From: Glaucostegus cemiculus
Lineage: Eukaryota
NCBI GenBank assembly: GCA_976551045.1
Contig: CDPCPM010000033.1
Coordinates: 5,146,001-5,210,000 of the forward strand
DNA: 64,000 nucleotides
Reading direction: 5' to 3'
In this document: positions 8,501-56,028 of the stretch, one piece after another
Numbering within the stretch: the first letter of the stretch is position 1
Layout: every line of letters starts with the position of its first letter
The notes under the pieces: model-generated
What the model saw: only the letters and a program-made list of their open reading frames with translations
What the model was told of the DNA's origin: nothing
The model's database searches: none
Made by a program: the position numbers and the translations under genes

Positions 8501-10556
8501 CATGGCGGCAAGGCCTTGAGGCTGTAGTGGGTTTGCACGGGAAGGTCCCATGCGAGAACAAGAAATTAATTGATGAGTGAACCAAGGTGTCATGTAGGGA
8601 TCAGCCCACTTCAGAATGTTGAAGGGAGCAGAGAGAGGAATATATGTTAGTTGGTGGCATAATGCTGAAAGTGCCGAGACCAGCAGTGTATTATTCATTG
8701 AATGTGGATCCTAGTAGGGTGAACTTTCAATGCAAAGTCACTTTGGAGAACATTGAACTGGTGCTGGTTCTGGAGGCAGTAGTGCTTCTGAATGGCTATT
8801 AAATTGAAGTACTTGCCATTTGGGAAAGGAGACATGCACAGAATGCTCTACATTTACCTCATATCCTAACTTTCATATTGCTTTCAGTCAAAGTGGAAGT
8901 TCTGAGTTATCAACAAGATTATGATTTGAATTTACAGTACAATTACTGAAGCTGAATGTTTTAATCATCCAATGAAAATAAATCAACAATGAAGTTGTGC
9001 TTTGAAATAAAGATTGTGTATTTTGTAAGTTAATTATTATGAAATTAAATACATAATGAATTACAATGGCCTACAAAATCAGTATACAATCTCTTTGTTT
9101 ACATAATTATTACTTTAGGAAATCTCTGCCAAAGCTGTATTACTGTTACTTTTGTTTTCCCACATGTTATGATCTAGAATGATTTATAAATGGCTCATTA
9201 TAAAAAGTACTATGATTCACATACTGTGAACACTCATCAAGTAAGGCTTAAAACAAAAATTCTCAGAAGAATCCATGGCTGTTTCAAATTCATTTTTTCC
9301 TCCTCATTGTAATGTTTTGGAAGATCTGTGGCATTGTGCATGGACTTCTAGTTTACTCATTTTCATTTAATTACAATTGTTCCTTCCACTAAGAATATCA
9401 TACTGTTCCTGATGATATCTTGAGGACCAATTACAAATAACAAAATATCAGCTAGGATGCATGGAAGATGCATGGAAACACATACTAAAATTACCCTGCA
9501 TATGGAACCCAGCATCAGTTTCTTTCAGGGTTACAGGAGTGGATCTTTTATGCATATAGTACACAAAGGATCGAGCACATGAATGGCGCCATACTGATGC
9601 AATTACACACAGTAACTGTACGTAATTTCAGGAGTCACCCAAAAATTACCACACAGCCTCTGCAATCTGCTGTGGTGGGAAGTCGTTAAGTAACAATTCA
9701 CAGCAGATGCTGATATGGCAAGTTGTGGGGTTGAATTGATGGTCTATCACTGGGAGTGGCAGAATAGACTTAGGGCAGGCATACCAGATGAAAGATTGGG
9801 TGTACTGGCAGGTGAAGTTAAAGACTAGAGAAGTCAGGTTCCCCCTCACTCCAAGTGGTGGACCTTACCTGAAACATGGGGAGGCATTCAGCCCATTGAA
9901 GAAGAAGCCATGGATGAATTCCAGGTACAGAGCTTAAATGAGAGCACAAATAAGGACTATCACCTTGCCTAATGCTTGAGCAGGTCTTCACCCTGCTGTT
10001 AATGCCTGGTTACTTGATTGAAACCCATGTTGTTTTCTCAGTGTTTACGCATGCTTCAATGTTGCAGCATTGATAACAAACATTAATTACATGTTGATTA
10101 ATGTCATTGGTGTATTCCAATGCCCTCTGTGCAGGTGTGTCATGTGCACGGAAATGAGCAGATTCAAGTTGTTCACTATGCATACCCATAAATGCCAATC
10201 AAGTTTAGTAATCAATTTTACATTTCCCTTCACTTGTTTGTTTTAGTCTCCAAAGACAAGATGACTGAAGCCTGGAGAACTAGATCTGTTCAATATCTAG
10301 TTGTCCAATGGAGTAATTTGTAATGACAGCCCATATTGCATGCTAAGTAATAAATTAATGTTGCTGATGTTAATCTAACCAAAAATAATTTTTGAGTCAA
10401 TCATAGCCCGCAAAGGTGATCATCAATTTTTAAGTCATAAATACTTATGGTTCCTTATTAATGTTGTTTATCTGCAGAAGTTAAGATTGCTAAGGAAAAG
10501 TTAACCTTCATTACACAAAAAAAAAGATAGTTACTTTCCTTTTCTTTGAATTTTAG

Positions 10557-10744
10557 GAAGAAATTGCAACAATTCATTTTACCTGTGCAAAAATGGGAAG
10601 TGTATAAATGAAACCCTTACTTGTGATAAGCATAATGACTGTGAAGATGGATCAGATGAAAACAATTGCTTTGTCAATGAATGTGCGAATAAGCGAATCA
10701 GCGGATGTTCTCAAGACTGCCAGGACTTTAAAATTGGGTACAAG
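10557..10744 (+). CDS. LRP1B: Exon A (188 nt): last LDLa repeat of cluster III plus start of EGF repeat
   Basis: ttttag|GA AGA AAT TGC...TAC AAG|gttagt; [62 protein letters not shown]. Missed by the ORF track. Confidence 0.93.
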
Positions 10745-12215: not shown

Positions 12216-13830
12216 AGACTTCTGCTAAATATTACTGAAATACCCGAAGCTGAATTTTAACACAATAATTAAGCATTGTACTCCACTTTCATAAGGAATA
12301 TGTATAATAGTCCTTCTTTAAGCATAGATATAATATTCTCTGTACACCCACGTGTGTGTTCATATTGTGAACCCGTTGGGTTGGGGGGGGGTCACGGTGC
12401 GGGGTTTCATATAACATTGGCAAAGACAGGTTGGACCTTCCAGTCTGCCAATTTGAAATCTCAACATATAAACAGATTGAGAGTGCAACCTTACAACCAT
12501 TAGATTTTGGATATATTATTAAATATATTCTAAGCTCCAATTCCTTTGGTGAAGTCATCTTAACCAGAAAGAGTAATATGATAGAGCATATGGTTTCTGA
12601 GCAACTATATAAGTCTCCTTTATACTGAATGTCATAAAGTTGTGAGACAAAATGGCATTAAAAAGCCCTGCAGTAGGACTAGACAATATAGCTGCTTGAG
12701 CCTACTTTGCCTTTCAGTAAAGTAGCTGATACTGTGCCAGAAAAAAAACTACTCCTGCTCAGTCCTCAAATCATCTGGTTCCTTTACTGTCCAAAAATAT
12801 TTCAATCTCAACCTTTAATGCACTCATCCATTGCCCTTTGAGGTACAGAATTCCAAAGATATACAGCCCTCTGCACAAAACTATTCTCCTTATCCTGAGA
12901 TGATGTTCCTAAATTTTTGAATTTCAATTTCATCTGCTGGGATTAATCCTTCTTAAAATCATGTCTGTCTTCATAAGAAATAACACTAGATGAGGGCCTG
13001 GAATGTGGTTTTGATGGAAACCAATAAGACCCAAAGTCCAGCCAATACTGAGTCCCAGAGTTTAAGTGCATGAGACCAGTAATAGATTGCCTTCTGCTGG
13101 GCATCCACAGGCAACATGTTGAAGAGGACTGTAAAATCAGACCTTTGCATCTATGGCAATGACCCTCAGAATGGTCTCGAAAAAGAGACTGAACAGTTGA
13201 GATAAGCAAAATGGGCAATGATGATGGGTGGAAAGGGACAATCTGGAATAAACCATTATGCAGAGTTGACATGGAACTTGTGTTTAATTGAGTATTTTTT
13301 AAAATACTATCTTTTATCCAACATCTAATATTAAATTCTTTAAAACCAATGTCTAAGCCATCTTTCCTGGTTGTCTGCTCAACTGACTAACAATGTTTAG
13401 GCTGACTGGTTTGATAAAACAAATAAAGGCACACAAGAAGAAAGGGCCTCCTACCTTGCACATAGAAACTGGCTAAAAACTGTTTCAACCATGCACCCAA
13501 GAAACTAATTTGGACAGCTGCACTCCACTTCTGGCTCTGAATGTATGGAATGAGCCATCTTCTCTATTTGATATTTGGGTCTGCTTTATGTCCATTAAAT
13601 TGGTGCAGTCTTATTATTCACGATATGCTTTGCTTGAACTTTTTGAGTACTTAATACATAAATTTTCTTTTTTTCCCCCCAAAGTAGCAAAATTCAAAGC
13701 CTTTCATTTTAATTAATTTTATACAAATTATATTTTTAAACTGTCAGTAATACAGTAAATAGACTTGAAGTGCTGGTCTTCAAATGAATTGCTGATGATG
13801 GTAATTTTGTTAATGATTTGTATTTTTCAG

Positions 13831-14014
13831 TGCAAATGCTGGCCTGGATTCAGACTGAAAGATGATGGCAAAACCTGTATTGACATTGATGAATGTGCAA
13901 CCAGCTTCCCCTGTAGCCAGCAATGCATCAATACTTATGGAACCTACAAGTGTTTGTGTGCTGAAGGTTATGAAGTACGAGCAGATAATCCCAATAGCTG
14001 CAAAGTTTTATCAG
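13831..14014 (+). CDS. LRP1B: Exon B (184 nt): EGF / calcium-binding EGF
   Basis: tttttcag|TGC AAA TGC TGG...TTA TCA G|gtatga; [61 protein letters not shown]. Confidence 0.95.
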
Positions 14015-16090: not shown

Positions 16091-17374
16091 GATACTTCCC
16101 CACCCATCAGTGGGCTCATATTATCCCTTGAATTAAACTAAACTAAAAAAGTGAAGTTGCCTTCTAGGAGACTGAATATTTCCCAGAAAATATCATATGT
16201 AATAAATGGAACTGAATTATCAATGTTGCAGTAGAAATCCTAGAATTGAAAATGAATTCATGGGTCCAGACAGCCCAGGGAAGTAATTCAAATATGAATA
16301 AAATACAGAGGAATATAGCCAGAACAATAGAAAAAGTTTGCATGTTTAGGATGCCTATTAACATACTAGCTGGGACATACCTGAATGTTACATTTGTTCT
16401 GATGCCCTTAACATGGATCTAATCATATATTGGACTGGGATGAACAAAACAAAATAGTTAAAAATGCTGAAATTCTATTGTCTGAAAAAATGGCTGTGTT
16501 CCTCTAAGTGAGGAATGTTAATTATACAGATAAACATTATGAAGAAAACTTGAAGGTGATTTCAGTAACACATTTTAATCCCATTAAAATAAATGTTAAC
16601 AAAAATAAATATCTTTCATGAACTACCTTATTAAGACATTAGGAATACATTCCAGAGCAGATTAATAGAAAAGAAAAATATAATCAGCTTTTTTGAAGAA
16701 GTTAAAGGACCATTAAGGATGATCCTATACAATGGGAGAGAGCTGGTCAACAGATCACATTTTGCAGGAATTAGTTTGGATCACCAATAAGACGGAAAAA
16801 TTACCTTCTGTGCTTCACAGTTTGGTAGTTCACTGTACAAACTGAGAAACTAGTAGAATGAACTTTACTTAATTAAGTATTTGGCTTAATGTTTCTTATG
16901 TCCTCTTGTCTTATTAAGAATACCTTTGAGAATATGATTAATTTAATTAACAGTGATGAGGATCCATTGCAGAATGAAATTAGTTGTTCAAATTGTTAAA
17001 TTATTGAAAATACATGCATGTGTCAATGAATGACAAGTAAATTCATTCCAGTTCATTACCAATCCATGCATTCTGATTGTTAATATTTTCTCTTTATTAC
17101 CATTGGCTTGTTCATGGAGAACAGGTTAGACTTGGATAAGTATACAAAGGAACATGCATTAAGAGGGATTTCAACCTTTGCCATGTAATAAGGACCTTTC
17201 AATGATTATGTTTATCCAAAGTAAAGAAATGAATTCAAGTCGCATATGCAAAAATTTACCAGAATTAGGAGAAATATTTTTGTAAAGAATGTGAACATTA
17301 AATACTTTACATGACATCTTAAAATGCATGCCATTATCACACTTAATGAAGTTTCTTTTCTGCGTTGCGTTCAG

Positions 17375-17460
17375 ATGAGGAACCATATTTAATTTTTGCT
17401 GATCGACACGAAATAAGAAAAATGAGTATAGATGGATTCAACTACACATTATTAAAACAG
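17375..17460 (+). CDS. LRP1B: Exon C (86 nt): start of YWTD propeller
   Basis: gttcag|AT GAG GAA CCA...AAA CAG|gtaaaa; [29 protein letters not shown]. Confidence 0.95.
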
Positions 17461-17561
17461 GTAAAAGATGTTAAACTTTTAATTTCTTTTCTAGCATCAT
17501 TTGTTGCTTTGCATTTGAAATCTTCAGACACAGAACCAACAGCTTTTGTTTTATTTTACAG

Positions 17562-17681
17562 GGATTGAATAATGTTCATGCAATAGATTTTGACTACAGG
17601 GACCAATGTATTTATTGGGCAGATTTCACTACACAAGGCAGTACAATATCAAGGATCCATCTAAATGGAAGCAATCCTGAG
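17562..17681 (+). CDS. LRP1B: Exon D (120 nt): YWTD blade
   Basis: ttttacag|GGA TTG AAT...CCT GAG|gtagga after a 101-nt intron; [40 protein letters not shown]. Confidence 0.94.
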
Positions 17682-18424
17682 GTAGGAGGGTTTACTTTGG
17701 GAACATGAAAGTGAATAATTTAATCCTTGGTACCGCAAATATGTAATTTGAGTTCACATAGATTTTATACAGCTTTCATTCATTTTCAAAGCAGGTCTCA
17801 CAACAATAATGGAGATTAATTATACATTTCAATGAAATCAAAATAAATGTCTCGAAATTCCCTGTTCAAAAATGTCAAGCTTTGATGCGAGTAACCACCA
17901 TCTGTCTCCCATCCGATATTCATTACACCTTCAACTTTTGTGTCAACGCAGTGCAATGTTGACCTCCCAGACTGGAAGCGGATGCACTGTTGAGTCCATT
18001 GGCAGTTCCAGATCATACAGTGCTGATCAGACCTTGCACCTGGTCCTTTAGCTTCATACCAGCCGCAGCTAGTGTACAAAGACCCTGGTCATTTGAATAG
18101 GTTTGCCAACCCTCATTAAAAGATAATTTTAATAAAACATTTTCTTTTATTCTCCTTTATTTAATTTTATATTTGTCTTTTTCTCAATTTATTTGCAGTG
18201 GTTTAATGTGTCTTTACATTTATTATTTTTGATGATTGTTTTTTTTTTAACTTACTTAACTTTATTTCTGTTTTTTTTTTAATATTGGAGGCATTTAAAC
18301 ATATCAGTCCAGTGCTGTGGATAAAGCCTTGAGGTCGAGTTGCTATTAGTAGCCTGGCCAGTATTATAGAAGGATCAGGAAGTTGATCCCCTGGAGATAC
18401 AGAAGACTTGTTTTCTTCTTTCTA

Positions 18425-19650: not shown

Positions 19651-21038
19651 TGTGATTATAGTGAATGTAAATGTAAATTTAGAGTGTGTCCGTGTGTATA
19701 CTATTACGTTTGTTCTTCTTCAAGAGACAAATTTGGCGTGGGTTTAACATCTGTACATTTATTTAAACAACAACCGCACAGACTGCAACAGACAGGCTGG
19801 CTTGCTACCCACTCTATCACAGCCACTTCCTGTTCCATAGAACCATAGAACAATGCAGCACAAAACAGGCCCTTCAGCCCACCAAGTTGTGCCATCCTTC
19901 AAACATCTCACAATCTAACTCTTTCCTCCCACATATCCTACTATTCCACTTTCTTCCATGTGCCTGTCTAACAATCTCTTGAACCAGTCCATCGTATCTG
20001 CCTCTACTACCACCCCAGGCAGCGCATTCCATGCGCCAACCACTCTCTGGGTGAAAAACTTCCCTCTGACATCTCCCCTAAACTTTCCACCCAATATCTT
20101 ATAGCCATGCCCTCTTGTCTTGTGCATCTGCGCTCTGGGAAAGAGGTGCTGGCTGTCAACTCTATCTATTCCTCTCAATATCTTATACACCTCTATCAAG
20201 TCCACGCTCATCCTCTTCCTCTCCAACGAGTAGAGCCCTAGCATCTTAAGCCTCTCCTCATATTCCATACTCTCTAATCCAGGCATCATCATGGTAAATC
20301 GCCTCTGTACCCTCTCCAACGCCTCCACATCCTTCCTATAATGCGGCGACCAGAACTGAACACAATATTCTAAGTGTGGCCTAACTAGAGTTTTGTAAAG
20401 CAGCATCATCACCTCTCTGCTCTTGAACTCAATCCCACGATTTATAAAAGCTAACATCCCATAAGCCTTCTTAACTGCCCTATCCACCTGCGAGGCAACT
20501 TTGAGTGAACTGTGGATATAAACCCCCAGATCCCTCTGCTCCTCTACACTGCCAAGTACCTTACCATTTACCTCATACTCTGCCCTGGAGTTCTTCCTCC
20601 CAAAGTGCACCACCTCACACTTCTCTGGATTAAACTCCATCTGCCACCTGTCTGCCCAGCTCTGCATCCTATCAATATCCCTCTGTAAGCTCCTACAGTC
20701 CTCCACACTGTCTACCACACCACCGATCTTGGTGTCATCTGCAAACTTACCAACCCATCCTTCCACTCCTTCATCTAAGTCATCTATAAATATAACAAAG
20801 AGTAGAGGCCCCAGAACCGATCCGTGCGGGACACCACTAGTCACAGCCCTCCAATCGGAGGGCACTCCCTCCACCACAACCCTCTGCTTTCTACAGGAAA
20901 GCCAATTCCTGATCCACACAGCCAACCTCCCCTGGATGCCTCGACCTCTGACCTTCCCCCATGTGACCCCTTGCATTGCCTACTGGGAACTGTAGTTCTT
21001 TATTATAACTACATAACAACACATAGTAACACATAACA
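19651..21038 (-). mobile_element. Candidate short solo LTR (about 264 bp) split by a CR1 insertion
   Basis: Halves 19651-19838 and 20963-21038 rejoin at the CCAT duplication; TG...CA ends; minus-strand AATAAA near 19758; flanks gggg/gtgg (imperfect 4-bp TSD). Confidence 0.55.
19836..20962 (-). mobile_element. Young 5'-truncated CR1 LINE with uninterrupted RT C-terminal ORF
   Basis: ORF 19915-20976: SGVPHGSVLGP, KFADD, RPHLEYCVQFWSP, FFTQRVVGAWNALP; 3' end (ttctatgg)n repeat. Confidence 0.95.
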
Positions 21039-21363
21039 GTGGGGGTTTGTTGCCAGCCATCCTCTTTACTTTCCTTCCTATTAACCACTTATTCTATATT
21101 GCTTTATTTATTCTGGTGTTGGTGTAGGAGCAGAGTACCCAATATGCCAGATAGAACTGGTCTTCTAATTTCCTACCACATGGCCCCTGTCAACTTTGAT
21201 GTGAGCAAGAACAACATACATCTTGGAGTACATTCCAACACTTCGTCTGATTGCATTCATCACAAATGTTATTACTATTACATCTTAAAAAAGGCCTTGT
21301 TCATTAAGATTAAATATAGTCAATCACATTACAGCTACTTTGGATTGGAATTAGATTGGGTGT

Positions 21364-24300
21364 AGGAAGATTAGGCAGATTAATACGTGGCTGAGAGGAT
21401 GGTGTGAGAGGGAGGGCTTCAGGTTTTTGGATAATTGGGGTTTGTTCCAGGGAAGATGGGATCTGTTCCAACGGGATGGTTTACACCTGAACTGGAGGGG
21501 CACTGATATTCTTGCACGAAGGTTTGCTAGTGCTGCTCAGGGGGGTTTAAACTAAAGTTGCAGGGGGAAGAATGAGAGAGAGGATGGCGAGATAGAGGGT
21601 AGAGGACAGGTGGGGACTACACAATTTCAGAGCATTAATACGAATGGAGAGAGGAGAAATGGGTTAAAAATCCTATATCTGAACGCATGGAGCGTCAGGA
21701 ATAAGGTAGATGAGCCTGAAGCTCAGATATGAATGGGTAAGTATGATGTTGTTGGGATAACAGAGACATGGCTGCAGGGAGATCAGACCTGGGAAATGAA
21801 TTTTCAAGGGTATACATGCTATCGTAAGGACAGGAAGGTGGGCAGAGGGAGTGGGGTGGCCCTGTTGGTGAGGAATGAGATTCAGTCCCTTGCAAGGGGG
21901 GACATTGAATCAGGAGAAGTAGAGTCAGTGTGGATAGAAATGAGGAACTGCCAGGGCAAAAAGACCCTAATGGGTGTTATCTACAGGCCTCCAAACAGTG
22001 GCATGGATATTGGGTGCAAGCTGAATAGTGAGTTAACGTTGGCATGTGGCAAGGGTAATGTCACGGTAGTTATGGGGGATTTCAATATGCAAGTGGACTG
22101 GGAAAATCAAGCTGGTACTGGACCCCAGGAAAGGGAGTTTATAGAGTGCCTCCGGGATGCATTCTTGGAGCAGCTGGTATGAGAGCCGACCAGGGAGAAG
22201 GCTATTCTGGATTTAGTGATGTGTAATGAGAAGGATTTGATAGGGGATCTCGAAGTAAAGGAGCCATTGGGAGGTAGTGACCATAATATGATAAGTTTTT
22301 ATCTGCAAGTGGAGAGGGAAAAGGGCAAATCAGAAGGGACAATATTGCAGTTGAACAAAGGAGGCTATGGGGCCATGAGGGAGGAGTTGGCTAAAGTTGA
22401 CTGGATGGGCATCCTAGCAGAATTGACGGTGAAGCAGCAATGGCAGGTATTCCTGGGAATAATGCATAAGGTGCAGGTTCAGTTCATTCCCCAGAGAAGG
22501 AAAGACTCAAAGAGGGGAAAGGGGCCACCGTGGCTGACAATGGAAGTCAGAGATAGCATAGTGTTAAAAAGGAAGAGGTATAGCAGAACTAAGCGGAGTA
22601 GAAAGATAGAAGATTGGGTAATTTTTAAGGAGCAGCAGAATATAACTAAAAAGGTAATTTGGGGAGAAAAAATGAGGTACGAAGGCAAGCTAGCCAGGAA
22701 TATAAAGGAGGATAGCAAAAGCTTTTTTAGGTATGTGAAGGGAAAGAAGTTAGTTAGGAACAATGTTGGACCCTTGAAGACTGAATCGGGTGAAATTATT
22801 ACGGGAAACAGGGCGATGGCAGTCGAACTTAATAAGTACTTTGGATCTGTCTTTACTGAAGAAGACGTAAGTAACCTCCCAGAGGTACGGATGGATGGAA
22901 GGCAGAGGGTGACAGAGGAACTGAAGTGGATTGACATTAGGAAAGAAACGGTGATGGGTAGACTAATGGGACTGAAGGCTGACAAATCCCCAGGCCCAGA
23001 TGGTCTGCATCCCAGGGTACTAAAGGAGGTGGCTCTGGAAATTGTGGATGCATTGGTGATCATTTTCCGATGTTGCTTAGAGTTGGGGTCAGTTCCTGAG
23101 GATTGGAGAAAGGCTAACGTTATCTCACTTTATAAGAAAGGAGGGAGGGAGAAAACGGGGAACTATTGTCCAGTCAGCCTAACATCTGTGGTGGGGAAGA
23201 TGCTAGAGTCCATTATTAAGGATGAAGTAGCGACATATTTGGATAGCAATGAGAGGATTAGGTCAAGTCAACATGGATCTACCAGGGGCAAATCATGCTT
23301 GACTAATCTACTGGAGTTCTTTGAGAATGTAACAATGAAAATAGACGGGGGTGAGTCAGTGGATGTGGTGTACCTCGACTTTCAGAAGGCATTTGATAAG
23401 GTGCCACACAGAAGATTGGTGGGTAAAATTATGGCTCATGGAATTGGGGAGAGGGTATTATCATGGATAGAAAACTGGTTGGCTGATAGGAAACAAAGGG
23501 TAGGGGTGAATGGATGTTTCTCAGAATGGCTGGCCATGACTAGTGGGGTGCCACAGGGCTTGGTGCTGGGACCGCAGCTGTTTACCATCTATGTTAATGA
23601 TTTAGATGAAGGCATTGAGAATTAGTAAGAAGAGTATTAGTAAGTTTCCTGATGATACAAAGTTGGGTGGCAGTGCGACATGTGTAGAGGATGTTAGGAG
23701 AATTCAAGATGACTTGGATAGGTTGGGTGTGTGGGCAGATACTTGGCAGATGAAGTTTAATGTGAGTAAGTGTGAGGTTATCCACTTTGGGAGCAGGAAC
23801 AGGAAGGTGGATTATTATCTGAATGGTGTGGAGTTAGGTAAGGGGGAAATACAAAGGGATCAGGAGTCCTTGTTCATCAGTCACCGAAAGTGAATGAGCA
23901 ATTACGGCAGGCAGTGATGAAGGCTAATGGAATGTTGGCCTGTATTACAAGGGGAATTGAGTACAAAAGCAAAGAGGTTCTTTTGCATTTGTACAGGGCC
24001 CTGGTGAGACCACTCCTGGAGTATTGTGTACAGTTTTGGTGTCCAGTGTTAAGGAAGGATATCCTGGCTATAGAGGGCATGCAACGTAGGTTTACAAGGT
24101 TAATTCCTGGGATGTCGGGACTGTCTTATGCTGAGAGGTTGGAGAGACTGGGATTGTACATGCTGGAATTGAGAAGATTGAGAGGGGATCTGATTGAAAC
24201 ATACAAGATTATTAAGGGATTGGACAAGATGGAGTCAGGAAATATGTTCCAGATGTTGGGGAAGTCCAGGACCATAGAGCATGATTTAAGAATAAGGGGT

Positions 24301-24572
24301 AGGCCATTTAGGACAGAGGTGAGGAAAAACTTCTTCTCCCAGAGGGTTGTGAATTTGTGGAATGCGCTGCCTCGGAAGGCAGTGGAGGCCAGTTCTCTGG
24401 ATACTTTCAAGAAGGAGCTAGATAGGTTTCTTGTGGATGAGGGAATCAAGGGATATGGGGACAAAGCAGGAACAGGATATTGATTGTTGATGATCAGCCA
24501 TGATCTCAAAATGGCGGTGCAGACTCGAAGGGCCAAATGGTCTACTTCTGCACCTATTGTCTATTGTCTATA
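21364..24572 (+). mobile_element. Long CR1 LINE: ORF1 esterase C-terminus plus disrupted ORF2 (APE + RT)
   Basis: 21364-21555 reads RKIRQINTWLRGWCEREGFRFLDNW...DGLHLNWRG...LN*. ORF2 motifs [45 protein letters not shown]; stops near 21730 and 22180, frameshifts near 23620 and 23860; (ctattgt)n tail. Confidence 0.95.
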
Positions 24573-27584: not shown

Positions 27585-27731
27585 TTGGCACTCCTTGCTA
27601 CTGTTGAGAGTTGGCATTCTGTGTTGGGAGTTTGCACTCCGCATTGGCACTCCCTGCTGCTGTTGAGCATTGGCATTCCGTGTTGGGAGTTGGCACTCCA
27701 CGCTGGGAGTTGGCATTCCCTGCTGCTGTTG
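27585..27731. repeat. Minisatellite, 7 units beginning ttggcaYtcc
   Basis: Units of 13-26 bp, e.g. ttggcactccctgctgctgttgagca and ttggcattccgtgttgggag. Confidence 0.8.
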
Positions 27732-29370: not shown

Positions 29371-31455
29371 TTGGAATTGGAATTTATTTATTGTTGTCAC
29401 TTGTACCGAAGTACAGTGAAAAGCTCGTCTTGCATGCCATTCATACAGATCAATTCATTACACAATGCACTAAGGTAGTACAAGGTAAAACAATACAGAA
29501 TGCAGAATAAAGTGTCACAGCTACAGAGAGAAAGCATTGCAGGTAGACAGTAAGGTGCAAGGTCATAACGAGGCAGATTGTGAGGTCAAGAGTCCATCTT
29601 ATTGTACTAGGGAACCATTCGATAGTCTTAGCGAGATAAAAACTAGCCTTGAGCCTGGTGGTATGTGCTTTTAGGATTTTGTATCTTATGCCCGATGGGA
29701 GAGAGGATAAGAGATAATGTCCCAGGTAGGTAGGGTCTTTGGCTGCTTTACTAATGTAGTGAGAAGTATATACAGAGTCCACGGAGGGAAGGCTGGTTTC
29801 TGTGATGACCTAAGCTGTGTCCATAATTCTCTGAGGTTTCTTGCGGTCCTGGATAGAGCAGTTGCCATACTAATCTGTGATTTGTTCAGATAGGATGCTT
29901 TCTATGGTGCATCGATAAAAGTTGATGAGTGTCACGGGACATGCCAAATTTCTTCAGCCTCCTGAGGAAGTACAGGCACTGGTGAGATTTCTTGTCCATG
30001 GCATCTACATGTTGGACCAGGACAAGCCATTGGTGATGTTCACTCTTAGGAACTTGAAGCTCTCAACGCATTCAACCTCAGCACCATTGATGTAGTGAGC
30101 ATGTGCACTGCCCCCTTCCTGAAGTCAATGACCAGCTCTTTTGTTTTGTTGACATTGAGGGAAAGGTTGTTATCATGACACAATGTCACTAGGCACTCTA
30201 TCTCCTTCCAGAGCAGAATCTGGCCATGCAGTCATGAGTCTATAGCGAGTAGAGTAGGGGACTGAGGATGCAGCCTTGTGGACCACCAGGGTTGAGAATA
30301 ATCGTGCTGGAGATGTTGCTGCCTATCCTTACTGATTGTGGTCTGTTGGTCAGGAAGTCAAGGATCCATTTGCAAAGGGAGGTGTTGAGTCTCAGGTCAT
30401 GGAGTATGGTGATGAGTTTGCCTGGAATTATAGGTTTGAAGTTGGAGCTGTAGTCAATAAACAATAGTCTGACGCAGATGTCTTTACTGTCCAGATGCTC
30501 CAGAGATGAGTGTAGGACCGGGGAGGTGGCATCTGACGTAGACCTGTTTCGACGGTAGGTGAATTGCAATTGGTCAAGTTTTTCTGCGAGACTCGAGTTC
30601 ATGAATGCCATGACCAGCCTCTCAAAGCACTTCATGATGGTGGATGTCAGAGCCACTGGGTGGTAGTCATCAAGGCACTTTACCTTGTTTTTCTCAGGTA
30701 CTGGGATGATAGTGGTCTTCTTAAAGTAAGTGGGAACCTCAGATTAAATCAGAGAGAGGTTAAAAATGTCTGCAAGTACCCCCGCCAGCTAATCTGCACA
30801 AGATCTAAGGATGCGGCCAGGCACACCATTCGGGTCAGATATTTTCTGTGAGTTCACTTTCCCAAAGATTGATCTTACTTCCTCAATGGGTTCAGGTGCA
30901 TTGGAGGCTTTCAGGGTGGATGGTGACATACCAATCCCCTTCTGTTCAAAATGTGCATAGAATGCGTTAAGCTCATCAGGAAGGGATGCACTGTTCTCGG
31001 CGATATTGCCTGATTTTGTTCTGTAGCCAGTTATACTATGTAAACCCTGCCACAACTGATGGCTTGTCTGGAACTCGATTTTGGACTGGTATTGTCTCTT
31101 TGCATTAGCTTTAGCTTTACAGAGGCCATATCTCGATTTCTTGTAAAGGTCAGGGTCACCCAATTTGAATCCTGTGGTCCTGACTTCAGCAGGAAGAGGA
31201 TCACCCCGTTCATCCATGGTTTCTGGCTTGGGAACACCCAGGTTGTCCTCTTTGGTACACAGTCCTCCACACATTTGCTGATAAAGTCCATGACAATGGT
31301 GACATATTCATCTCAGCTGGCAGCTGAGACTTTGAACATGGACCAGTCCACCAACTCAAAGCTGTCAGGTAGAAGCTCACCTATTTCCTCAGGCGAGCAC
31401 TGTACAACTTTCTGCACTGGATCCTCTCGCTTCAACTACTGTTTGTATGGAAGAT
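29371..31455 (-). mobile_element. Rex1/Babar LINE, 5'-truncated and decayed
   Basis: Minus-strand [82 protein letters not shown]; 3' end stem-loop + aataaa + (ttccaa)n. Confidence 0.9.
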
Positions 31456-32510: not shown

Positions 32511-32880
32511 TCTTACTGCAAATAAATCCAAGGTGTTACGTGGAATACATCAGATCTTCCAAGATAATTGCTCTCAAGGGGTCATTTATAGAAAAAACTT
32601 CTGTTTCATAGCCAGCCAAAAAATCTATTCATTGTTGCTAAGAAATCGAATCACATTGTTTCCTTCTTTAGGTATTAACCATGCAAAATTGGATTTTACT
32701 TACAGTGGATCATGCTAGCAATTCCTTTCCTTGGTGAAATCATGCCAATTATAAAGTTGGTCCATGTTAACCTTTTTTCCCTCCATCAGACACATACCTA
32801 ATGAGGTCACCAATTCCACACTGCATGCTTCTGCCCATAGTAACATAAATTGAAGCACTGCATGCTTCTGCCCATATCAA

Positions 32881-33292
32881 ACCATAGAACAATACAGGCT
32901 CTTCGGTCCACCATGTTGTGCTGACCTTCAAACCACTCCTAAGACTATCTAACTCCTTCCTTCCTTCCACATATCCCCCTATCTTAAATTCCTCCATATG
33001 CTTATCTAACAATATCTTGAACTTGCCCAACATATCAGCCTTCACCACCCCAGGCAGTGCATTCCATGCACCAACCACTCTCTGGGTGAAAAACCTCCCT
33101 CTGACGTCTCCCTTGAACTTCCCACCCATTACCTTAAAGCCATGTCTTCTTGTATTGAGCACTGGTGCCCTTTGAAAGAGGCGCTGGCTGTCTACTCTAT
33201 CATTTCCTCTTAATATTTTGTATACTGCTATCATGTCTCCCCTTATCCTCCTTCTCTCCAATGAGTAAAGCCCTAGCTCCTTTAGTCTCCCC
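32881..33292 (-). mobile_element. CR1 3' fragment (same subfamily as 19836-20962)
   Basis: ERRRIRGDMIAVYKIL...FFTQRVVGAWNALP; 3' UTR closely matches 19843-19990. Confidence 0.9.
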
Positions 33293-36738: not shown

Positions 36739-37377
36739 ATCAGCCTGTTCAAATTGCTAATTTGTTCAAGTATATGGAAGAGATTAAGTTACTTTAAATC
36801 TTGAAAACTAAATATGAATAATAACTAATATCATCAAAAATCTAATATCTACATGTCCACAATATTTTATTTTTATATCACACTGCCTTGGGCTAACTTG
36901 CAAACTAGTACCACTCTGCTCATTTGCAAACAGGAAGACTCGATTGTTGAGAACAAATCAATAGAAATGTGCTGAAACACGACAAGAGCTAAAACCTACT
37001 GTGAATTACACAACATAAAAGTTACCTTTGTTTAATTTTTGCCTTTCAAGGTTCTATTGGCTGATTTCAGAATACTACAAATCTATAGAATCTAAGCAAT
37101 TGATTTAGCATTATTACAAATTCTGAGTACACCTCAATATTCAACTTCTCATGGAGATTTCTTGACTTCTGGCTGCCTCTGGGTACAGAATGAATTGTAA
37201 ATGGAATTCAACTAAAAGATTATATTTGTTCTCATTTGATCATATATATTGAAATCTGTCTGAGACTATCGATCCTTATTGCAGTGGTGATTGTGGTCTG
37301 CTGTTTTTGATGTGTTTGTCCATTTAGGCAAGAAATCTATTTGGTCAATATTAATGCTTCAGTTTACTTTTTCCCAG

Positions 37378-37565
37378 GTGGTCCAGCATACAGGACAAAC
37401 CATTCCAGAAGGATTGGCAGTTGACTGGATTGGCAAGAACCTGTACTGGTGTGACAAAAGCAAGATGACTATTGAAGTCTCTAAACTTAATGGACTTTAT
37501 CAGACAGTCCTTGTGAACACAGGGCTCAAGACTTTGAAGCATCTTGTGATCGATCCTCGCATTGG
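37378..37565 (+). CDS. LRP1B: Exon E (188 nt): YWTD blades
   Basis: tttcccag|GTG GTC...ATT GG|gtatga; [63 protein letters not shown]. Confidence 0.95.
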
Positions 37566-38483
37566 GTATGAGCCTAATATTACGAGCAACATAAAAACAT
37601 AATTAAACTATGTATTTATATTGCCTGAGCTACATCTAATTCTGAACAAGTATACATTTAATTTTCTTACTTTTCTAACTAATGCTAACCACTTAATGAA
37701 ACAAAACCTCCTTAGGTGTAACTCTGGCTTTTTAGGGGTTTCATGGCAACATTTTTTGATCATCACTTTAATCATCCAGTGTTTGAATTATCTGAGATAC
37801 TCATCTAATGTAAGCATGCCCATGAAAAGGTTAATTATAAAGTTTAATGTTTTCCTGTCCAATTACATATTGAGGTGGCAGTTCTAATTTCTATCTAAGT
37901 TATTGTCCCCATTATTTATGTGGCTCTATAATGGCAGTATATCAAATTAAAACATGTATTTCACTTTTCTATTTAAGATTTTTTTTATTCTATTGAAGTA
38001 AACAACCTTGTACTCTTACTTGAATGTTTATCTGAACACTAATATGTGAAAAATTAAGTGAAAGATATTCAGGCAAAGAATTTGCAGATGTAATAATGGC
38101 AAATTATAGACTTTCGCCATCATTAAACTATGAGTGAGAATCACCTTGCTATTTCTGCATCTGTTATGTAGAGTGGAAATACCAAAATCACTGTCAGTCT
38201 TACAGCCCTCCTTCACCAGCACGGCTTGTTCCCTTTTCTACTCCACTACCGGTGGATCAGTGAAATTGATGAGTGATCAATGATTTCATTTGGATCTTGG
38301 GTAGGCATCAAGGAAATAAATTTGCAGATTTTGGGGAATGGAGTGACAGCATGGAATTTATGTACAGGCAACCCCCACCTTACAGCAGTTCGGGTAACAA
38401 AAATTAGCTCTTATGGAATTCACAAATCACTACCAAAAAAATTCTGGGATATGGAATAAAAACCCACTCTTACTAAATTTCTG

Positions 38484-40703: not shown

Positions 40704-40909
40704 ATATTTATATTGGACCGATCATGGTGAAAATCCACATATTGGCCGTGCAGGAATGGATGGAACTAATCAAAGCATTGTCATAAGCACTAAAATCTTA
40801 AAGCCAAGTGGTCTGTGTCTGGATTATGTGAATAACAGGCTGTATTGGGCTGATGATCAGCAAGGTTACATAGAGTTTGCTGACCTGGATGGATCCAATA
40901 GACATAGAG
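40704..40909 (+). CDS. LRP1B: Exon F (206 nt): YWTD blades
   Basis: tgctcag|A TAT TTA TAT TGG ACC GAT...CAT AGA G|gtaggt; [68 protein letters not shown]. Confidence 0.95.
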
Positions 40910-40986: not shown

Positions 40987-41558
40987 TCATAGAGAAATAC
41001 GAGTCCAAGCCAATCACATGGTCCGCCTAGCTAGTCCCAATTTCCTGTGTTTGGCCCATATCCCTCCAGGCCACACGCCTCCATATACCTATCCAAGTGC
41101 CTCTTTAATGATGCTATAGTACCTGCCTCAACCACTTCCTCTGGCAGCTCATTCCACATACTCATCACTTTCAGCATGAAGAAGTTGCCCCTCAGGACCC
41201 TTTTAAATCTTTCCCTTCTCAGCCTAAATCTATGTCCCCTAGTTTTGGACTCCCCTACCCTGGGGAAAAGATTATTATCATACATATTATCCATGCTTCT
41301 CATTTTAAATACTTCTATGAGGTTGCCCCTCATTCTCCTATGTTCCAAGGAAAACTGACCTAGCCTGTCCAACTTCTCCCTGTAACTCAGGCCCTCTAGT
41401 CCTGGCAACATCCTCGTAAATCTTTTCTGCACTCTTTCCAGTTTAACCACATCTCTCCTGTAACATGGTGCCCAAAACTGTACACAGTACACCAAGTGTG
41501 GCCTCATCAATGATTTGTGTAACTGCAACATAATGTCCCCACTCCTATACTCAATACC
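40987..41558 (-). mobile_element. CR1 3' fragment immediately downstream of exon F
   Basis: ORF 41031-41603: GIEYRS, RPHLVYCVQFWAP, LERVQKRFTRMLPGL, WNELP. Confidence 0.9.
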
Positions 41559-44500
41559 ATGTTTTAAAAAACATAAAAAATTCCATTTTTGAAGTTTGCC
41601 CATACTAGATTCAGTTTTTTATAGGATTTTTTAAATATAAATTCCTGTTAAAGTTTAAAAAAAATATATGCCCTTTGCATTGAGTGATCTCTTATCAACC
41701 TGACATAATGACATCATCCAAAAACACAGTATAGTATCAAGAAGTATTTTGATGATTGCCAGTGCAACCTAACCATCCCCTTCCTTGATACCTCCACCAA
41801 ATCCATATCTCTAACATCCAGATTTTCTTAAAATAACTGTTGGGAAGTTGAAATCATTGTCCTCAGTCGTAATCACCAGCTCTCCGTCGGTGCTCAATTG
41901 CAAACTCCACCCAGAATGACTGATTTCTGCCTGCCTCATTTCGTGTCACCTTTAGACAGGAGCTGAACAGGAGTGAGGGACAACAGTTAAAAATGATAAG
42001 TTTGACACTCATTTCATTTTGTACTCACACCTTAACACTGAACTTAATGATTTTTAAACAGTGCGCACAAGTATTGGGGGAAAAAAAGAAAAAGCAAGAT
42101 ACTCTGAAGGGAGTAATTTATAATAATATTTATTATAAATAATTATTCATAGTATATAACAATAATAATTATAATTTAGCATTATCTGAAATGCTGATAT
42201 AGACACCATTATGAATATGCATCTTAATGGTTTGATTACAGTGGAAAAGAATCAAATATGTTTTCATTTTCAAGTGAAACTGCTGAATTTTGCATGTAAT
42301 GTTATTGCAAATCATCATAAATAACTCAGCTCTGTGGAAGAAATTAAAACATATTCAGCCATTTCAAATTTAATAGATTGCTCTTTTGATATATGTCACT
42401 CATTTAACATGTGGGAGGAAATCTGCTGGATTTTCCTTCTGCATTTTTTGATTCTTGAGGAAGATCTTCTATGAAAGTCTATCATTGGAAGATAAGCCAT
42501 GTTCGGTGATGCTCCTTGAACCTTTCATACCAATTTCTGATCTCAGAGCAGTACAAAGTAGCAGTAGTAGCAGCAGTAAGTGAGATAGAGCTGAAAAGTG
42601 TCAGACCAGAATTTAGTAATGGAAGATTTTTCATTTGCAGTTAAGTTTAATAGTTTTTTTTGCTGAATTTCAGGAAATAATATCAATAAAAAACAGATTT
42701 AGAATGAGGTCCTGTATTAAATTTTGATTCTGCCTTTTAAAAATTAATAGTTTCAAAGAAAAAGTCAGTTGAGATGACTTGCGATTTCTTTTTTGGCCTC
42801 ATTTCACAGGGAAAAGCTCATTGAGCCCTTGTTGCCCCTGTCAAGATTGGAGATTTACCAGATTGTAGATTGCAGGAGCAAACCCATTTTCTATCACTTC
42901 TGAGTGTGATGTGTTGAATAGAACGATTTACTGGGCTATATACGGTTGCCATTTAAAAATGCCATTGGTATTTTAAAATTGAATCTTCTGCTTTGTAGTG
43001 CAGATTTTAAAAATGTCCTGAAGATGTAGCATAGATTCATCATAATCTTAAAAGAAAGACTAGTTTGGTAGTTCTACTGAAGGGATATAGTCTTAAAGAT
43101 TAATTGATCATCTCTTTGAAGATGACCATGAGTGTATTGCATTTTTGCAGCATTTTAAGACTTTTGTCATTTGGAATTTGTCATTATTTATTTGTGATAA
43201 CTGACAGAACATTATCACTGTTGTAAAATATATGCACAGAAAAAATGCAGAATGCATCACATTTTGTAGGAATTCACATTTGAAAGTCATCAAAATCAGA
43301 GTAAAATATATTCTATATTGTATAGCTGTCTACCATGCTTAGTATTTATAGATTTGGGACAGGTAGGTATTTACAAGGAATCAAACTGTCAGATTTGAAG
43401 AAGTGCTCAGGGCTTGCTTTCTTGATATTGCAAGGTGGAATTAAAATTTATCCGAGGTTAATGATTGATTGTTGCAAGGTGTCACATTGAAAATAAGATG
43501 GCTATGTGAATTTTGTATCCTCATCAAGGGGATTTTCAAGATGCAGACCAGAGGTTCTTAAAGTGATAGAAGGATTTAGATTTTTAACTGCATGGCCAAA
43601 TTTTTGTCAGTTATCAGCAATTACATGACTTCCAGTGCATCATAGGCTTAACATTTGATATTTTTGTTAATTTCTTTTATTAATCAGAAGTCATATATAA
43701 AAGGATAGTAACATTAGGTTAGTAATGATAATATAAGCTTATTCAAATGAAGTCCAGAGAGTGAAGGAAAGTCAATGCAAAATAATTCTCACTCAATTTC
43801 CTCAGTTGTCATTAATGGAGTGAAATACACACAGCAGTTTTTGCTTAGATCCCCTGATAAATTAATGGTAAATGCAACTTTTGTGTGTGGCATTGAACCC
43901 TACTTAATGGAAGACCTCCAGCCACTGTTTCAAATCTTTGCTGAGTTAGATGAATTCAGTCAGACTGTTTTAACAGGTCTCTACGTCCTTCTGCAAATAA
44001 ACGGGAGTTCTGCCAGATTGTGCTGATATTTCCTGTTGATGTACGTCTGTATGAGAATTGAGTGTGGATGGAATTGGGTTTGGCCCTGATGGTTAATGGT
44101 TTCTTTTGAATTAGAATTTCCATTTGGTTAAGTGACTGTCAGTATTTGTGCAAGTGCATCCAAGTAAAACAGTGTTCTCAAAAGAGAGGGAAACATGGAC
44201 AAATTTGATTTCCATCGAGTGCACTCTATGTTAAGCCTGACCCTTTTGTTTTGTTGTAAATTGAGAGTTTTAGCAGATATAATAGGATTTCAGTTCAAAG
44301 TATATGATTTTTAAATGATTTTGTTATTTCATTTTGAAGAATCCCAAAATCACCTCTTGCCATCACCTGTTGGACCAAATAAAACCTCAAGCAACAAGAG
44401 TTTATGCTCTGTTCAACATACTTGAAGTAATTAAGGGAAGCCGTGGGAAGCCTGCATGTTGCCATAGCAGTTATTCATAAGGAATTGTATATAAACTGAC

Positions 44501-44581
44501 TCTGATGGCTTTTACAATATGGAATGTTGTATCTGGTGATCTCCCAATGTAGTACATTAATATAACCATATCCTATTGCAG

Positions 44582-44770
44582 TTCATAATCAAGATATCCC
44601 ACATGTATTAGCATTGACATTATTTGAAGACTACATCTACTGGACAGATTGGAAAACTAAGTCGGTCAGCCGTGCTCACAAAACCACAGGCTTGAACAAG
44701 ATTCCACTAATCAGCTCTTGGCATCAGATAATGGATATCCATGTGTATCATCCTCACAGACAACCAGATG
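44582..44770 (+). CDS. LRP1B: Exon G (189 nt): last YWTD blade
   Basis: attgcag|TT CAT AAT...CCA GAT G|gtaatt; [63 protein letters not shown]. Missed by the ORF track. Confidence 0.94.
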
Positions 44771-46257: not shown

Positions 46258-46406
46258 TTCCTGGTCATCCATGCAAAATATCCAATGGTGGTTGCAGCAA
46301 CCTTTGTCTGCTATCTCCAGGAGGAGGATACAAATGTGCCTGTCCCACAAATTTCTATCTGGCTGCTGATGGCAAGACTTGCCTTTCCAATTGCACCGCA
46401 AGCCAG
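46258..46406 (+). CDS. LRP1B: Exon H (149 nt): EGF repeat after the propeller
   Basis: gtttcag|TT CCT GGT...AGC CAG|gtattg; [50 protein letters not shown]. Confidence 0.95.
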
Positions 46407-48103: not shown

Positions 48104-48197
48104 TTTGTCTGTAGCAATGATAAATGTATTCCATTCTGGTGGAAATGTGATACAGAAGATGACTGTGGCGATGGATCAGATGAGCCTGAAGATTGTC
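48104..48197 (+). CDS. LRP1B: Exon I (94 nt): first LDLa repeat of cluster IV
   Basis: caatag|TTT GTC TGT...GAT TGT C|gtgagt; [31 protein letters not shown]. Confidence 0.95.
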
Positions 48198-48932: not shown

Positions 48933-49049
48933 CTGAATTTAAATGCAGGCCAGGTCAATTTCAATGTGGTACTGGAATATGCACTAAACCTGCCTTCATC
49001 TGTGATGGCGAGAATGACTGTGGGGACAATTCAGATGAAGCAAATTGTG
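48933..49049 (+). CDS. LRP1B: Exon J (117 nt): LDLa repeat
   Basis: ttcacag|CT GAA TTT...AAT TGT G|gtcagt; [39 protein letters not shown]. Confidence 0.95.
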
Positions 49050-49159: not shown

Positions 49160-49279
49160 AGACGCATGTTTGCCTTCCAAGCCAGTTTAAGTGCTCACAG
49201 AAGAGGCGATGCATTCCCGTCATCTTCAAATGTAATGGTCAAGATAACTGTGGGGATGGAGAGGATGAAAGCGATTGCC
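49160..49279 (+). CDS. LRP1B: Exon K (120 nt): LDLa repeat
   Basis: ctttag|AG ACG CAT...GAT TGC C|gtgagt after a 110-nt intron; [40 protein letters not shown]. Confidence 0.95.
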
Positions 49280-51877: not shown

Positions 51878-51997
51878 CTGAAGTTACATGTTCTCCAAAC
51901 CAGTTCCAGTGTGCTGTAACCAAGCGATGCATTCCTGAAGAATGGGTCTGTGACAAGGATCATGACTGTGCAGATGGCTCTGATGAATCCAATTGTA
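51878..51997 (+). CDS. LRP1B: Exon L (120 nt): LDLa repeat
   Basis: cccctag|CT GAA GTT...AAT TGT A|gtaagt; [40 protein letters not shown]. Confidence 0.95.
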
Positions 51998-54228: not shown

Positions 54229-55228
54229 GCATAGAACAGTACAGCACTGGACAGGCCATTCAGTCCACATGTTGTGCTAATCTCAATGCCAGTTTATACT
54301 AAATGTCCTCCTCATGTGTATCATCCATATCCTTCCATTCCCTTTATATTCTTGTGTCTATCTAAAAGCCTCTTAAACTCCACCAAACTGTCTATTTCTA
54401 CAACTACCCCTGGTAATCCATTCCAGGCATCTACCACTCTCTGCATATAAAACTTGCCCCTCATGTTACCATTAAACTCCCCCCCCCCCACCTTAATAGC
54501 ATGTCCTTTGGTGTTTGACATTTCTACCTTGAGGAAAAGATTCTTATTGTCTACCCTATCTACAGTATGTCTCTCATTATTTAAAAAATCTCCAATATAC
54601 TTCCCTCAGCCAAGTTTGTCCAAACTTTCCTGAAAGGTCATACCCTCTTATCCAGGCAGCATCCTGGTAAACCTCTTCTGCACCCTTTCCATTGTCTCCA
54701 TATCCTTCCTATAATGGGGCAACCAGAACTGCTCACAATACTCCAAGTACAGTCTGACTAAAGTTTTATATAGCTGCAGCATAACTTCCTTACTCTTATA
54801 CTCAACACCCCTGGCAAGCATTCCGTACACCTTTTTTACCACCTTATCCACTTGTGTAGCCACTTTCAGTGATCTATGGACCTGGACCCCAAATCTCTCT
54901 GTACTGCAATGCTTTTAAGGGCCCTACTATTAACTGTATACTTTCTCCTTTCATTTGACCTCCCAAAGTGCAACACTTCACACCTGCCTGGATTAAACTC
55001 CATCTGCCTCTCTCTGCCCATATCTATAACTGAACTATTTTGCTCAGTACTTCCTAATCCACCCATTGACATTTCCATCAAAACATTGATATATATCATA
55101 AACAACAGAGGTCTCAGCACTGATCCATGAAGAACACCACTGGTTACAAACCTCCAGCCAGAATAACAGCCTTCTACCCCTATTCTCTGTCTTTTATGGG
55201 CAAGCCAGTTCTGAATCCATGGGATCCA
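54229..55228 (-). mobile_element. CR1 RT/3' fragment
   Basis: WIQNWLAHKRQRI, SGVLHGSVL, LYKTLVRLYLEYCEQFWLPHYRKD, RVVDAWNGLP. Confidence 0.9.
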
Positions 55229-55902
55229 GGGTAAATTGCTTAGGCCAAAGTCCAATTTTCACTGAGATGATGATTTTCCACCAGCAGTTGATGTTTGTCT
55301 CAGTGTGCATTCCATGGTATACCCCATTAAATAGAGGGTCCCATGTTACACAGTTTTTTGGGATGATCATCAACAAAGATCACTGCATCCCTTTCCAAAC
55401 CCTCTTGGAAGACATGCACTCTGGAAGGAACTGAATGACAATCTCATCTGCATCTGCATTTACTTAGTGAGAGGTTGTGATCCAAATGTAGCTAATTCAA
55501 TATTTTGCATCACAAACCTCTTGCTGTCAACACCTTTCAGGACAAGGTACATGATAGGAAGCATAAATATTCAGTCACACAAGGATAGTAAGATAGAATA
55601 TTTTAAAGTTCTTGTTTGTTTCCAAAATTACTTAATATCTTGACACTTAGTATAGATATAAAATGTGCTGATTGGAAAAGTCACAGTAACTGTGAGATGC
55701 CATCAGCATATTGGTGCAATGATTCTCATAGCAGAATCCTGAAGCTGATATCACCTTTGTTCTTATCAAATGTGACAGAATACAAAGACCAAATGGATAC
55801 CAGTGCATTGGGAATAAGAATATTTTGCTTGTGTAATGATAAGCCTTTGTGACTTGAGGACTATAATAAAAGCTGTTTTGTTATATTTTTGATTGACTTC
55901 AG

Positions 55903-56028
55903 CTCAGATTGCTTGTGGCACAGAAGACTTTCACTGTAAAGGCACAAGCAGATGTGTTCCTGCACGATGGAAATGTGATGGAGAGGATGACTGCGGAGAT
56001 GGATCTGATGAACCAAGAGAAGAATGTG
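55903..56028 (+). CDS. LRP1B: Exon M (126 nt): LDLa repeat of LRP1 'TQMTCG...EPKEEC' type
   Basis: acttcag|CT CAG ATT...GAA TGT G|gtatgt; [42 protein letters not shown]. Missed by the ORF track. Confidence 0.94.

Follow-up and report, generated by a model that had tools for sequence, protein, structure and literature searches.

Symmetric LDL-receptor class A (LDLa) modules, encoded by phase 1-1 exons, can be gained or lost without a frameshift. Each LDLa repeat has three disulfides and folds around Ca2+, and its tryptophan and acidic residues grip the lysines of a ligand together with a neighboring repeat. LRP1B, one of the genes most often altered in cancer, is described in the available text of the reviews (PMC8469001, PMC1563464) as LRP1 with one extra repeat in cluster IV and a 33-residue insert in the cytoplasmic tail, and its ligands have mostly been studied with a minireceptor made from cluster IV, read as LRP1 with a single repeat added. 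According to the accessible part of PMC8469001, RAP and uPA/PAI-1 are among the LRP1 ligands that cluster IV of human LRP1B continues to bind. For LRP1 itself, PMC8239462, in the sections available, reports that strong RAP binding requires the tryptophan in both repeats of a doublet and that the aromatic residue is absent from CR30 and CR31. The accessible text of PMC9804390 counts CR24-25 among the four strongest factor VIII doublets of LRP1, and that of PMC12839305 names CR25 as the single repeat that bound one viral glycoprotein best. The evolution of LRP1B at the level of single repeats was not found in the literature searched (subscription journals lay outside its coverage), and the available text of PMC9935665 and PMC11772764 does not treat it.

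The window, a 64,000-nucleotide stretch of the genome of the ray Glaucostegus cemiculus (contig CDPCPM010000033.1, here G000:C33, positions 5146001-5210000; adding 5,146,000 to window numbering gives C33 coordinates), contains at 55903..56028 (+) a 126-nt exon of phase 1-1, flanked by an AG acceptor and a GTATGT donor. It encodes one LDLa repeat (PF00057 Ldl_recept_a, E 2e-13, 50.5 bits against a cut-off of 24.1) with the features by which such repeats are recognized, about 40 aa, six cysteines, and an acidic C-terminal cluster, and its cysteine spacing is 6,5,6,5,10. The reading frame of the exon continues from that of the repeat-4 exon (51878-51997) and leads into that of the repeat-6 exon, which lies past the window's end, and once the junction codon is spliced its first residue is Thr; that it is spliced as modeled is what the DNA and the database gene models indicate. 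Among the position-specific profiles described below, profile 5 gave 80 bits and the others 52 or less, and 38 to 41 of the 41 residues are identical in eight other cartilaginous fishes. By sequence, we assign the exon to cluster-IV repeat 5, the equivalent of LRP1 CR25. The earlier note on this DNA had described an intact symmetric phase 1-1 exon whose peptide starts with Thr, as we find, and the human sequences that it quoted match the fetched proteins P0202 (LRP1B) and P0282, which we take to be human LRP1 from its accession series. Its statement that the exon aligns with human LRP1 almost residue for residue was too strong, with 30 of 41 residues identical (73%); identity to chondrichthyan LRP1 is also 73%.

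Using the window and the next 200 kb, we modeled 12 exons that start with the EGF repeat and run through the whole of cluster IV. Spliced together they give a stop-free peptide of 486 aa, identical without gaps to Mobula P0054 at 465 of 486 positions. On the forward strand of the window, the EGF repeat and the start of repeat 1 (46258..46406, phase 1-0) precede the remainder of repeat 1 (48104..48197, phase 0-1), and repeats 2 (48933..49049), 3 (49160..49279), 4 (51878..51997, next upstream of the repeat-5 exon), and 5 occupy one phase 1-1 exon each. Beyond the window, with its numbering continued, lie the exons of repeats 6 (74605-74721, phase 1-1), 7 (81101-81207, phase 1-0), 8 (91439-91568, phase 0-1), 9 (92617-92739, phase 1-1), 10 (93778-93900, phase 1-1), and 11 (98914-99048, phase 1-1). 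These 11 repeats correspond one to one with LRP1 repeats 1 to 11. A six-frame profile scan of 44-101 kb recovered them at 44.6 to 60.1 bits and found nothing else above 6 bits that could be an extra LDLa exon in the cluster-IV introns. Upstream, on the same strand and with approximate limits, are the last cluster-III repeat with an EGF exon (10556..10744, tblastn limits), another EGF exon (13825..14013), two beta-propeller exons within 17371..17684 (17371-17460 and about 17550-17684), and three YWTD propeller exons (37375..37569, 40714..40908, and 44581..44769). The introns also hold retrotransposon-like fragments (19915-24483, 30240-31307, 32767-33291, 41031-41618, and 54866-55258); the three tested match reverse transcriptase and one matches endonuclease, and in the element at about 21733-24483 (+) stops break up both the endonuclease part and the reverse-transcriptase part. 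There are intronic tandem repeats as well, a perfect 2 x 56 bp repeat at 11168-11279 and a 20/59 bp minisatellite at 27585-27725.

The gene was placed both by phylogeny and by its neighbors. A maximum-likelihood analysis of 28 proteins over 1199 columns outside cluster IV placed it as sister to Mobula within the LRP1B clade (100/99), and the chondrichthyan group (100/100) as sister to LRP1B of bony vertebrates (100/99); the sole outgroup row, Saccoglossus, is partial and long, and bootstrap support for LRP1 is weak (52/99). Forcing the chondrichthyan genes to group with LRP1 cost 181 log units and was rejected (p-AU 1.2e-7). In the human genome the order of the region is NXPH2, LRP1B, KYNU, as given in the available text of PMC3407782. 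The ray gene has corresponding flanks, with upstream kynureninase exons at C33:3.53-3.60 Mb, on the opposite strand (exon pieces scoring under the family cut-off, and the genome's sole kynureninase matches), and a gene of the neurexophilin family downstream at 5.91 Mb. Separate LRP1 proteins are present in Mobula, Carcharodon, and Callorhinchus (P0063, P0189, and P0190). On the basis of the tree, the AU rejection of an LRP1 grouping, the flanking genes, and the separate chondrichthyan LRP1, we identify the ray gene as an LRP1B orthologue, in agreement with the earlier note, which had called it LRP1B-like and had named LRP1 itself as the finding that would overturn this. It extends over more than 520 kb from the first LDLa matches on the contig to the stop, and its C terminus is of the LRP1B type. 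Two large multi-cluster LDLa genes elsewhere in the assembly, at G000:C33 13.02-13.15 Mb and G000:C14 14.59-14.78 Mb, are presumably LRP2 and an LRP2-like paralog.

To map repeats across lineages, we used one profile per cluster-IV position, trained on 144 LRP1 and cyclostome arrays with no LRP1B among them, and applied these to the non-LRP1, non-cyclostome members of the 316 of 348 fetched proteins that have a cluster-IV anchor. The counts draw on the best 120 of 1037 and the best 120 of 1262 matches; of the 348 proteins, all of at least 400 aa, the 32 without the anchor were left out (17 of them long, including the LRP1 models P0166 and P0167). All counts are of protein models, isoforms included, and not of species. 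Paralog bins were set by similarity upstream of cluster IV rather than by the tree, and two Cercocebus models binned as "other" nevertheless show the bony pattern.

Repeat 5 was matched in 24 of 25 chondrichthyan LRP1B entries, 21 of which read 1 to 11 in full (among the matches listed), and it is present in all eight other cartilaginous fishes sampled. By contrast, among the matches listed no repeat in any of the 131 bony-vertebrate LRP1B models had position 5 as its best-matching profile (best score 51.8 bits, versus 80 to 83 in chondrichthyans). These models span monotreme, marsupial, and placental mammals, birds, squamates, a tortoise, frogs, salamanders, a caecilian, lungfish, coelacanth, bichirs/reedfish, sturgeon, gar, and teleosts. 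Eleven cluster-IV repeats were read in amphioxus, Saccoglossus, and 34 of 35 cyclostome models (among the matches listed), and the LRP1-like proteins of lamprey, hagfish, and amphioxus have the same repeat order as ray LRP1B; within cluster IV of LRP1, repeat 5 is the most conserved position (97-98%). Given 11 repeats in amphioxus, Saccoglossus, and cyclostomes and the absence of repeat 5 throughout bony vertebrates, these comparisons argue that the 11-repeat cluster is ancestral and that the change occurred on the bony-vertebrate stem, with the loss of repeat 5 likely falling before the split of ray-finned and lobe-finned lineages. The earlier note had recognized the exon as an ancestral LRP1-type repeat, and had described human LRP1B as passing straight from repeat 4 into a repeat-6-type unit; both statements stand, since the exon matches LRP1 and no repeat of human LRP1B has it as best match. 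Its dating of the loss to the mammalian LRP1B lineage was too recent, as lungfish, gar, and birds are among the 131 models without repeat 5. Its suggestion that the repeat count might differ from both human paralogs also fails, because 11 is the count of LRP1, human LRP1B having 12. The gain of two repeats in bony LRP1B, the source of the human 12, had been overlooked.

This gain was read from the same profiles. Twelve cluster-IV repeats were found in 115 of the 131 bony models and in 0 of the 25 chondrichthyan entries (among the matches listed). The commonest bony reading (49 models) was 1-2-3-4-6-7-8-7-8-9-10-11, and the others differ mainly in the assignment of the diverged inner repeats 7 and 8. 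A map with one loss and a pair duplication beat the best single-insertion map in all 115 twelve-repeat models, by 15.7 to 35.8 bits. When bony repeats were compared with five chondrichthyan LRP1B arrays, positions 5, 6, 8, and 9 were assigned to repeats 6, 7, 7, and 8 in 69 of 69 cases and position 7 to repeat 8 in 58 of 69. The cysteine spacing of repeat 5 (6,5,6,5,10) occurs at no bony position, and bony LRP1B contains two copies of the 3-residue linker that is peculiar to the 7-8 junction. In the repeat tree the ray exon grouped with LRP1 repeat 5 (97/94), no bony repeat being included, while bony repeats 6 and 8 were sisters (96/95) that joined chondrichthyan repeat 7 (96/88), a nesting that places the duplication after the chondrichthyan/bony split. 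Bony repeat 5 grouped with repeat 6 in two trees, with support of no more than 84/79 and 94/95. The map is least secure for the inner pair, because the repeat tree does not join bony repeats 7 and 9 as sisters and the LRP1 profiles often place bony repeats 7 and 8 at other positions (7 or 11). On this evidence the 12 repeats of human LRP1B are best read as 1-2-3-4-6-7-8-7'-8'-9-10-11, and its well-known "one extra repeat" is likely to be the net outcome of losing one repeat and gaining two, early in the history of bony vertebrates. We give a probability of roughly 85% to the reading in which the ray repeat 5 belongs to an LRP1-like 11-repeat LRP1B, and bony LRP1B lost exon 5 and duplicated the 7-8 pair before the ray-finned/lobe-finned split. 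In the 28-protein tree, which excludes cluster IV, the stem of bony LRP1B measures 0.32 and the chondrichthyan stem half of that (0.16), so the whole C-terminal region of bony LRP1B evolved faster when cluster IV was remodeled.

Of the other ways to read these arrays, the one that deserves most thought, although we consider it unlikely, is that bony repeat 5 is a diverged descendant of the ray exon or a 5/6 hybrid and that repeat 6 was the one lost, in which case an orthologous repeat would survive in human LRP1B. AU tests did not reject a grouping of bony repeat 5 with repeat 5 (p-AU 0.50, 0.17, and 0.09, from single-repeat trees of about 40 columns), and bony repeat 5 looks like repeat 5 at three diagnostic columns, of which two fall within the N-terminal third. 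Against this, 11 of the 14 diagnostic columns, among them the two indels and the residues at the start of the exon, follow repeat 6, bony repeat 5 is 39 aa long rather than 42, the profile votes for repeat 6 were 69 of 69, and with linkers included the free tree was better by 11.7 to 16.4 log units. The gar repeat-5 row in one of the AU and diagnostic data sets is 30 aa, shortened by an extra cysteine, and was retained. It is hence the profiles, the length, the indels, and the 11 versus 3 diagnostic columns, and not the tree tests, that make the loss of repeat 5 likely. A second alternative is a 12-repeat array as the ancestral state of LRP1B, from which cartilaginous fishes would have reverted to the layout of LRP1 through loss of the pair or conversion from LRP1; nothing favors it directly, other than that bony repeats 7 and 9 were left unpaired as sisters, and we hold it to be quite improbable. 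The two bony repeats of type 7 pair with each other and leave chondrichthyan repeat 7 outside, and the ray introns hold no extra LDLa exon. Conversion within cartilaginous fishes is disfavored by the equal identity of the exon to chondrichthyan and human LRP1.

A comparably small chance goes to the idea that the exon exists in the DNA of cartilaginous fishes and is mostly skipped in their transcripts, giving a protein without repeat 5. Being symmetric, exon 5 is skippable, and one Callorhinchus model (P0220) does lack repeat 5, omitting exactly these 42 residues. That model, however, also reads into the intron following repeat 7 and looks to us like one forced onto a bony-type template; in addition, the strong conservation across the eight other species and the presence of repeat 5 in 24 of 25 entries speak against skipping. 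Least credible of all is that the gene is simply LRP1, or a third paralog lost in bony vertebrates, so that LRP1B lost nothing. Its cluster-IV layout and 35-residue NPxY spacing are LRP1-like, chondrichthyan LRP1B orthologues are mostly labeled "LRP1-like" in databases, and no separate LRP1 was found in the ray assembly, where neither conserved exons nor a shark LRP1 fragment as queries gave a match better than the LRP1B gene. These points are outweighed by the LRP1B clade, the AU test, the kynureninase and neurexophilin flanks, the C terminus, the length of the gene, and the presence of both genes in other chondrichthyans. The missing LRP1 is either an assembly gap or a true loss; unlike in this assembly, LRP1 was found in other rays, sharks, and chimaera.

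Loss of exon 5 together with duplication of the 7-8 pair, the reading we favor, would follow readily from the exon phases, which were read in the ray gene, those of bony LRP1B introns being deduced from gene models and not from genomic DNA. Exon 5 is phase 1-1, and deleting it alone would preserve the frame. Exons 7 (1-0) and 8 (0-1) would do so only together and would have been duplicated as a pair, giving a net change of 11-1+2=12. In six of the seven ten-repeat bony models, repeats 7 and 8 are skipped as one in-frame unit, the joint of the skip falling at the same point as the phase-0 intron of the ray, and six of the seven have filler at the place of repeat 5. Such models, which we read as forced onto an LRP1 template, fit the map, although indirectly. 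In the reedfish models P0305-P0307, a 31-residue filler between repeats 4 and 5 scores 12.5 bits on the repeat-5 profile, a value reached by 0 of 500 shuffles. It is probably an annotation artifact, since six of the seven ten-repeat models carry filler and the others have no evident likeness to repeat 5; less probably, it is a decayed repeat-5 exon.

The remodeling bears on the tryptophan doublets through which the receptor would grip its ligands. As a check on the method, the tryptophan pattern extracted from LRP1 shows CR30 and CR31 without the aromatic residue, in agreement with the available text of PMC8239462. A conserved tryptophan lies two residues before Cys4 of repeat 5 in 21 of 21 chondrichthyan LRP1B arrays, and repeat 5 sits within a run of six tryptophan-bearing repeats (4 to 9) in ray LRP1B, as in LRP1. 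Among the matches listed, five Trp-Trp doublets were counted in 110 of 111 LRP1, 34 of 34 cyclostome, and 21 of 21 chondrichthyan LRP1B arrays, whereas the 115 bony LRP1B arrays have two (108 arrays) or one (7 arrays). From LDLa chemistry, ray repeat 5 would fold around Ca2+ and grip ligand lysines with a neighboring repeat. With five doublets as in LRP1 against two in bony LRP1B, ray LRP1B is predicted to resemble LRP1 more closely than human LRP1B does in the binding of cluster-IV ligands, and human LRP1B is predicted to have fewer strong sites despite more repeats, with weaker canonical binding. The effect of the remodeling on function may nevertheless be modest, because human LRP1B still binds many LRP1 ligands. 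It is a tentative proposal, which we rate at somewhat under even odds, that on the bony stem LRP1B lost its CR25 counterpart, gained two repeats, and lost the binding tryptophan from two central repeats, going from five doublets to two and being retuned from an LRP1-like scavenger to a weaker or differently selective binder. Among the PDB matches listed (60 of 72), no cluster-IV chain of LRP1 or LRP1B was recognized.

The consequences are mainly for comparisons between the two receptors. If the map is true, the two arrays fall out of step at the fifth repeat, and binding data for single LRP1 repeats, when carried over to LRP1B by position, are misassigned from there onward; CR25 then lacks a counterpart in LRP1B, whose central repeats make fewer canonical doublets. 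If the retuning is also true, LRP1B of sharks, rays, and chimaera offers a living ancestral state for direct comparison. The result dates the remodeling of cluster IV, and the "LRP1-like" labels in databases are seen to hide chondrichthyan LRP1B. Orthologous proteins that include the exon are already in databases, while the repeat map and the dating were not found in print in the literature searched.

With human LRP1B (NP_061027.2, P0202), its orthologue by tree and gene neighborhood, the ray gene shares the LRP1B-type C terminus, the large introns, and the shorter repeat-4 spacing common to bony LRP1B, and full-length chondrichthyan models (P0054 and P0216) have clusters I to III of 2, 8, and 10 repeats as in the human protein. 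Lamprey LRP1-like P0064 and P0108 have three cluster-I LDLa repeats, versus two in jawed vertebrates and hagfish (profile count). The differences lie in the cluster IV of 11 repeats with repeat 5 and without the duplicated 7-8 pair, in the five Trp-Trp doublets, in the tail, and perhaps in the furin site. The 12 repeats given in reviews mark LRP1B of bony vertebrates only. The cytoplasmic tail of the ray is encoded at G000:C33 5,305,650-5,307,720. The NPxY spacing is 35 residues in three chondrichthyan LRP1B models, without the 33-residue insert, and tblastn of this insert gave no convincing match in 7 kb around the ray tail exons, where a short diverged exon could escape. Tail inserts are present in reedfish, gar, axolotl, and human models and absent from several bony isoforms, and the insert may be a bony-vertebrate addition as well. 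Reviews of human LRP1B also place a furin site between cluster IV and the membrane. At the site equivalent to the LRP1 furin site (G000:C33 about 5,256,100; window numbering ~110,100), the sequence is basic in the ray and Mobula and does not have the R-X-K/R-R motif; the site varies among chondrichthyans, there is no basic cluster in reedfish, gar, or eel LRP1B, and LRP1B may go uncleaved in several lineages. With LRP1 (P0282, P0063) the ray gene shares the 11-repeat order, a near-identical cysteine spacing in cluster IV, the six-tryptophan run, and a repeat 5 that is 73% identical, but it is a paralog from a different clade and neighborhood, with a per-repeat identity to human LRP1 of 55 to 92%.

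Measured against the duplication and loss of LDLa exons in general, the remodeling of LRP1B is a known, ordinary process acting in one gene and not a new kind of system; what is offered is the corrected history of that gene. As elsewhere, a phase 1-1 repeat exon was apparently lost without a frameshift. Unlike in the general case, two asymmetric exons (1-0 and 0-1) appear to have been duplicated as a symmetric pair in bony LRP1B, and the loss there was masked by the gain.
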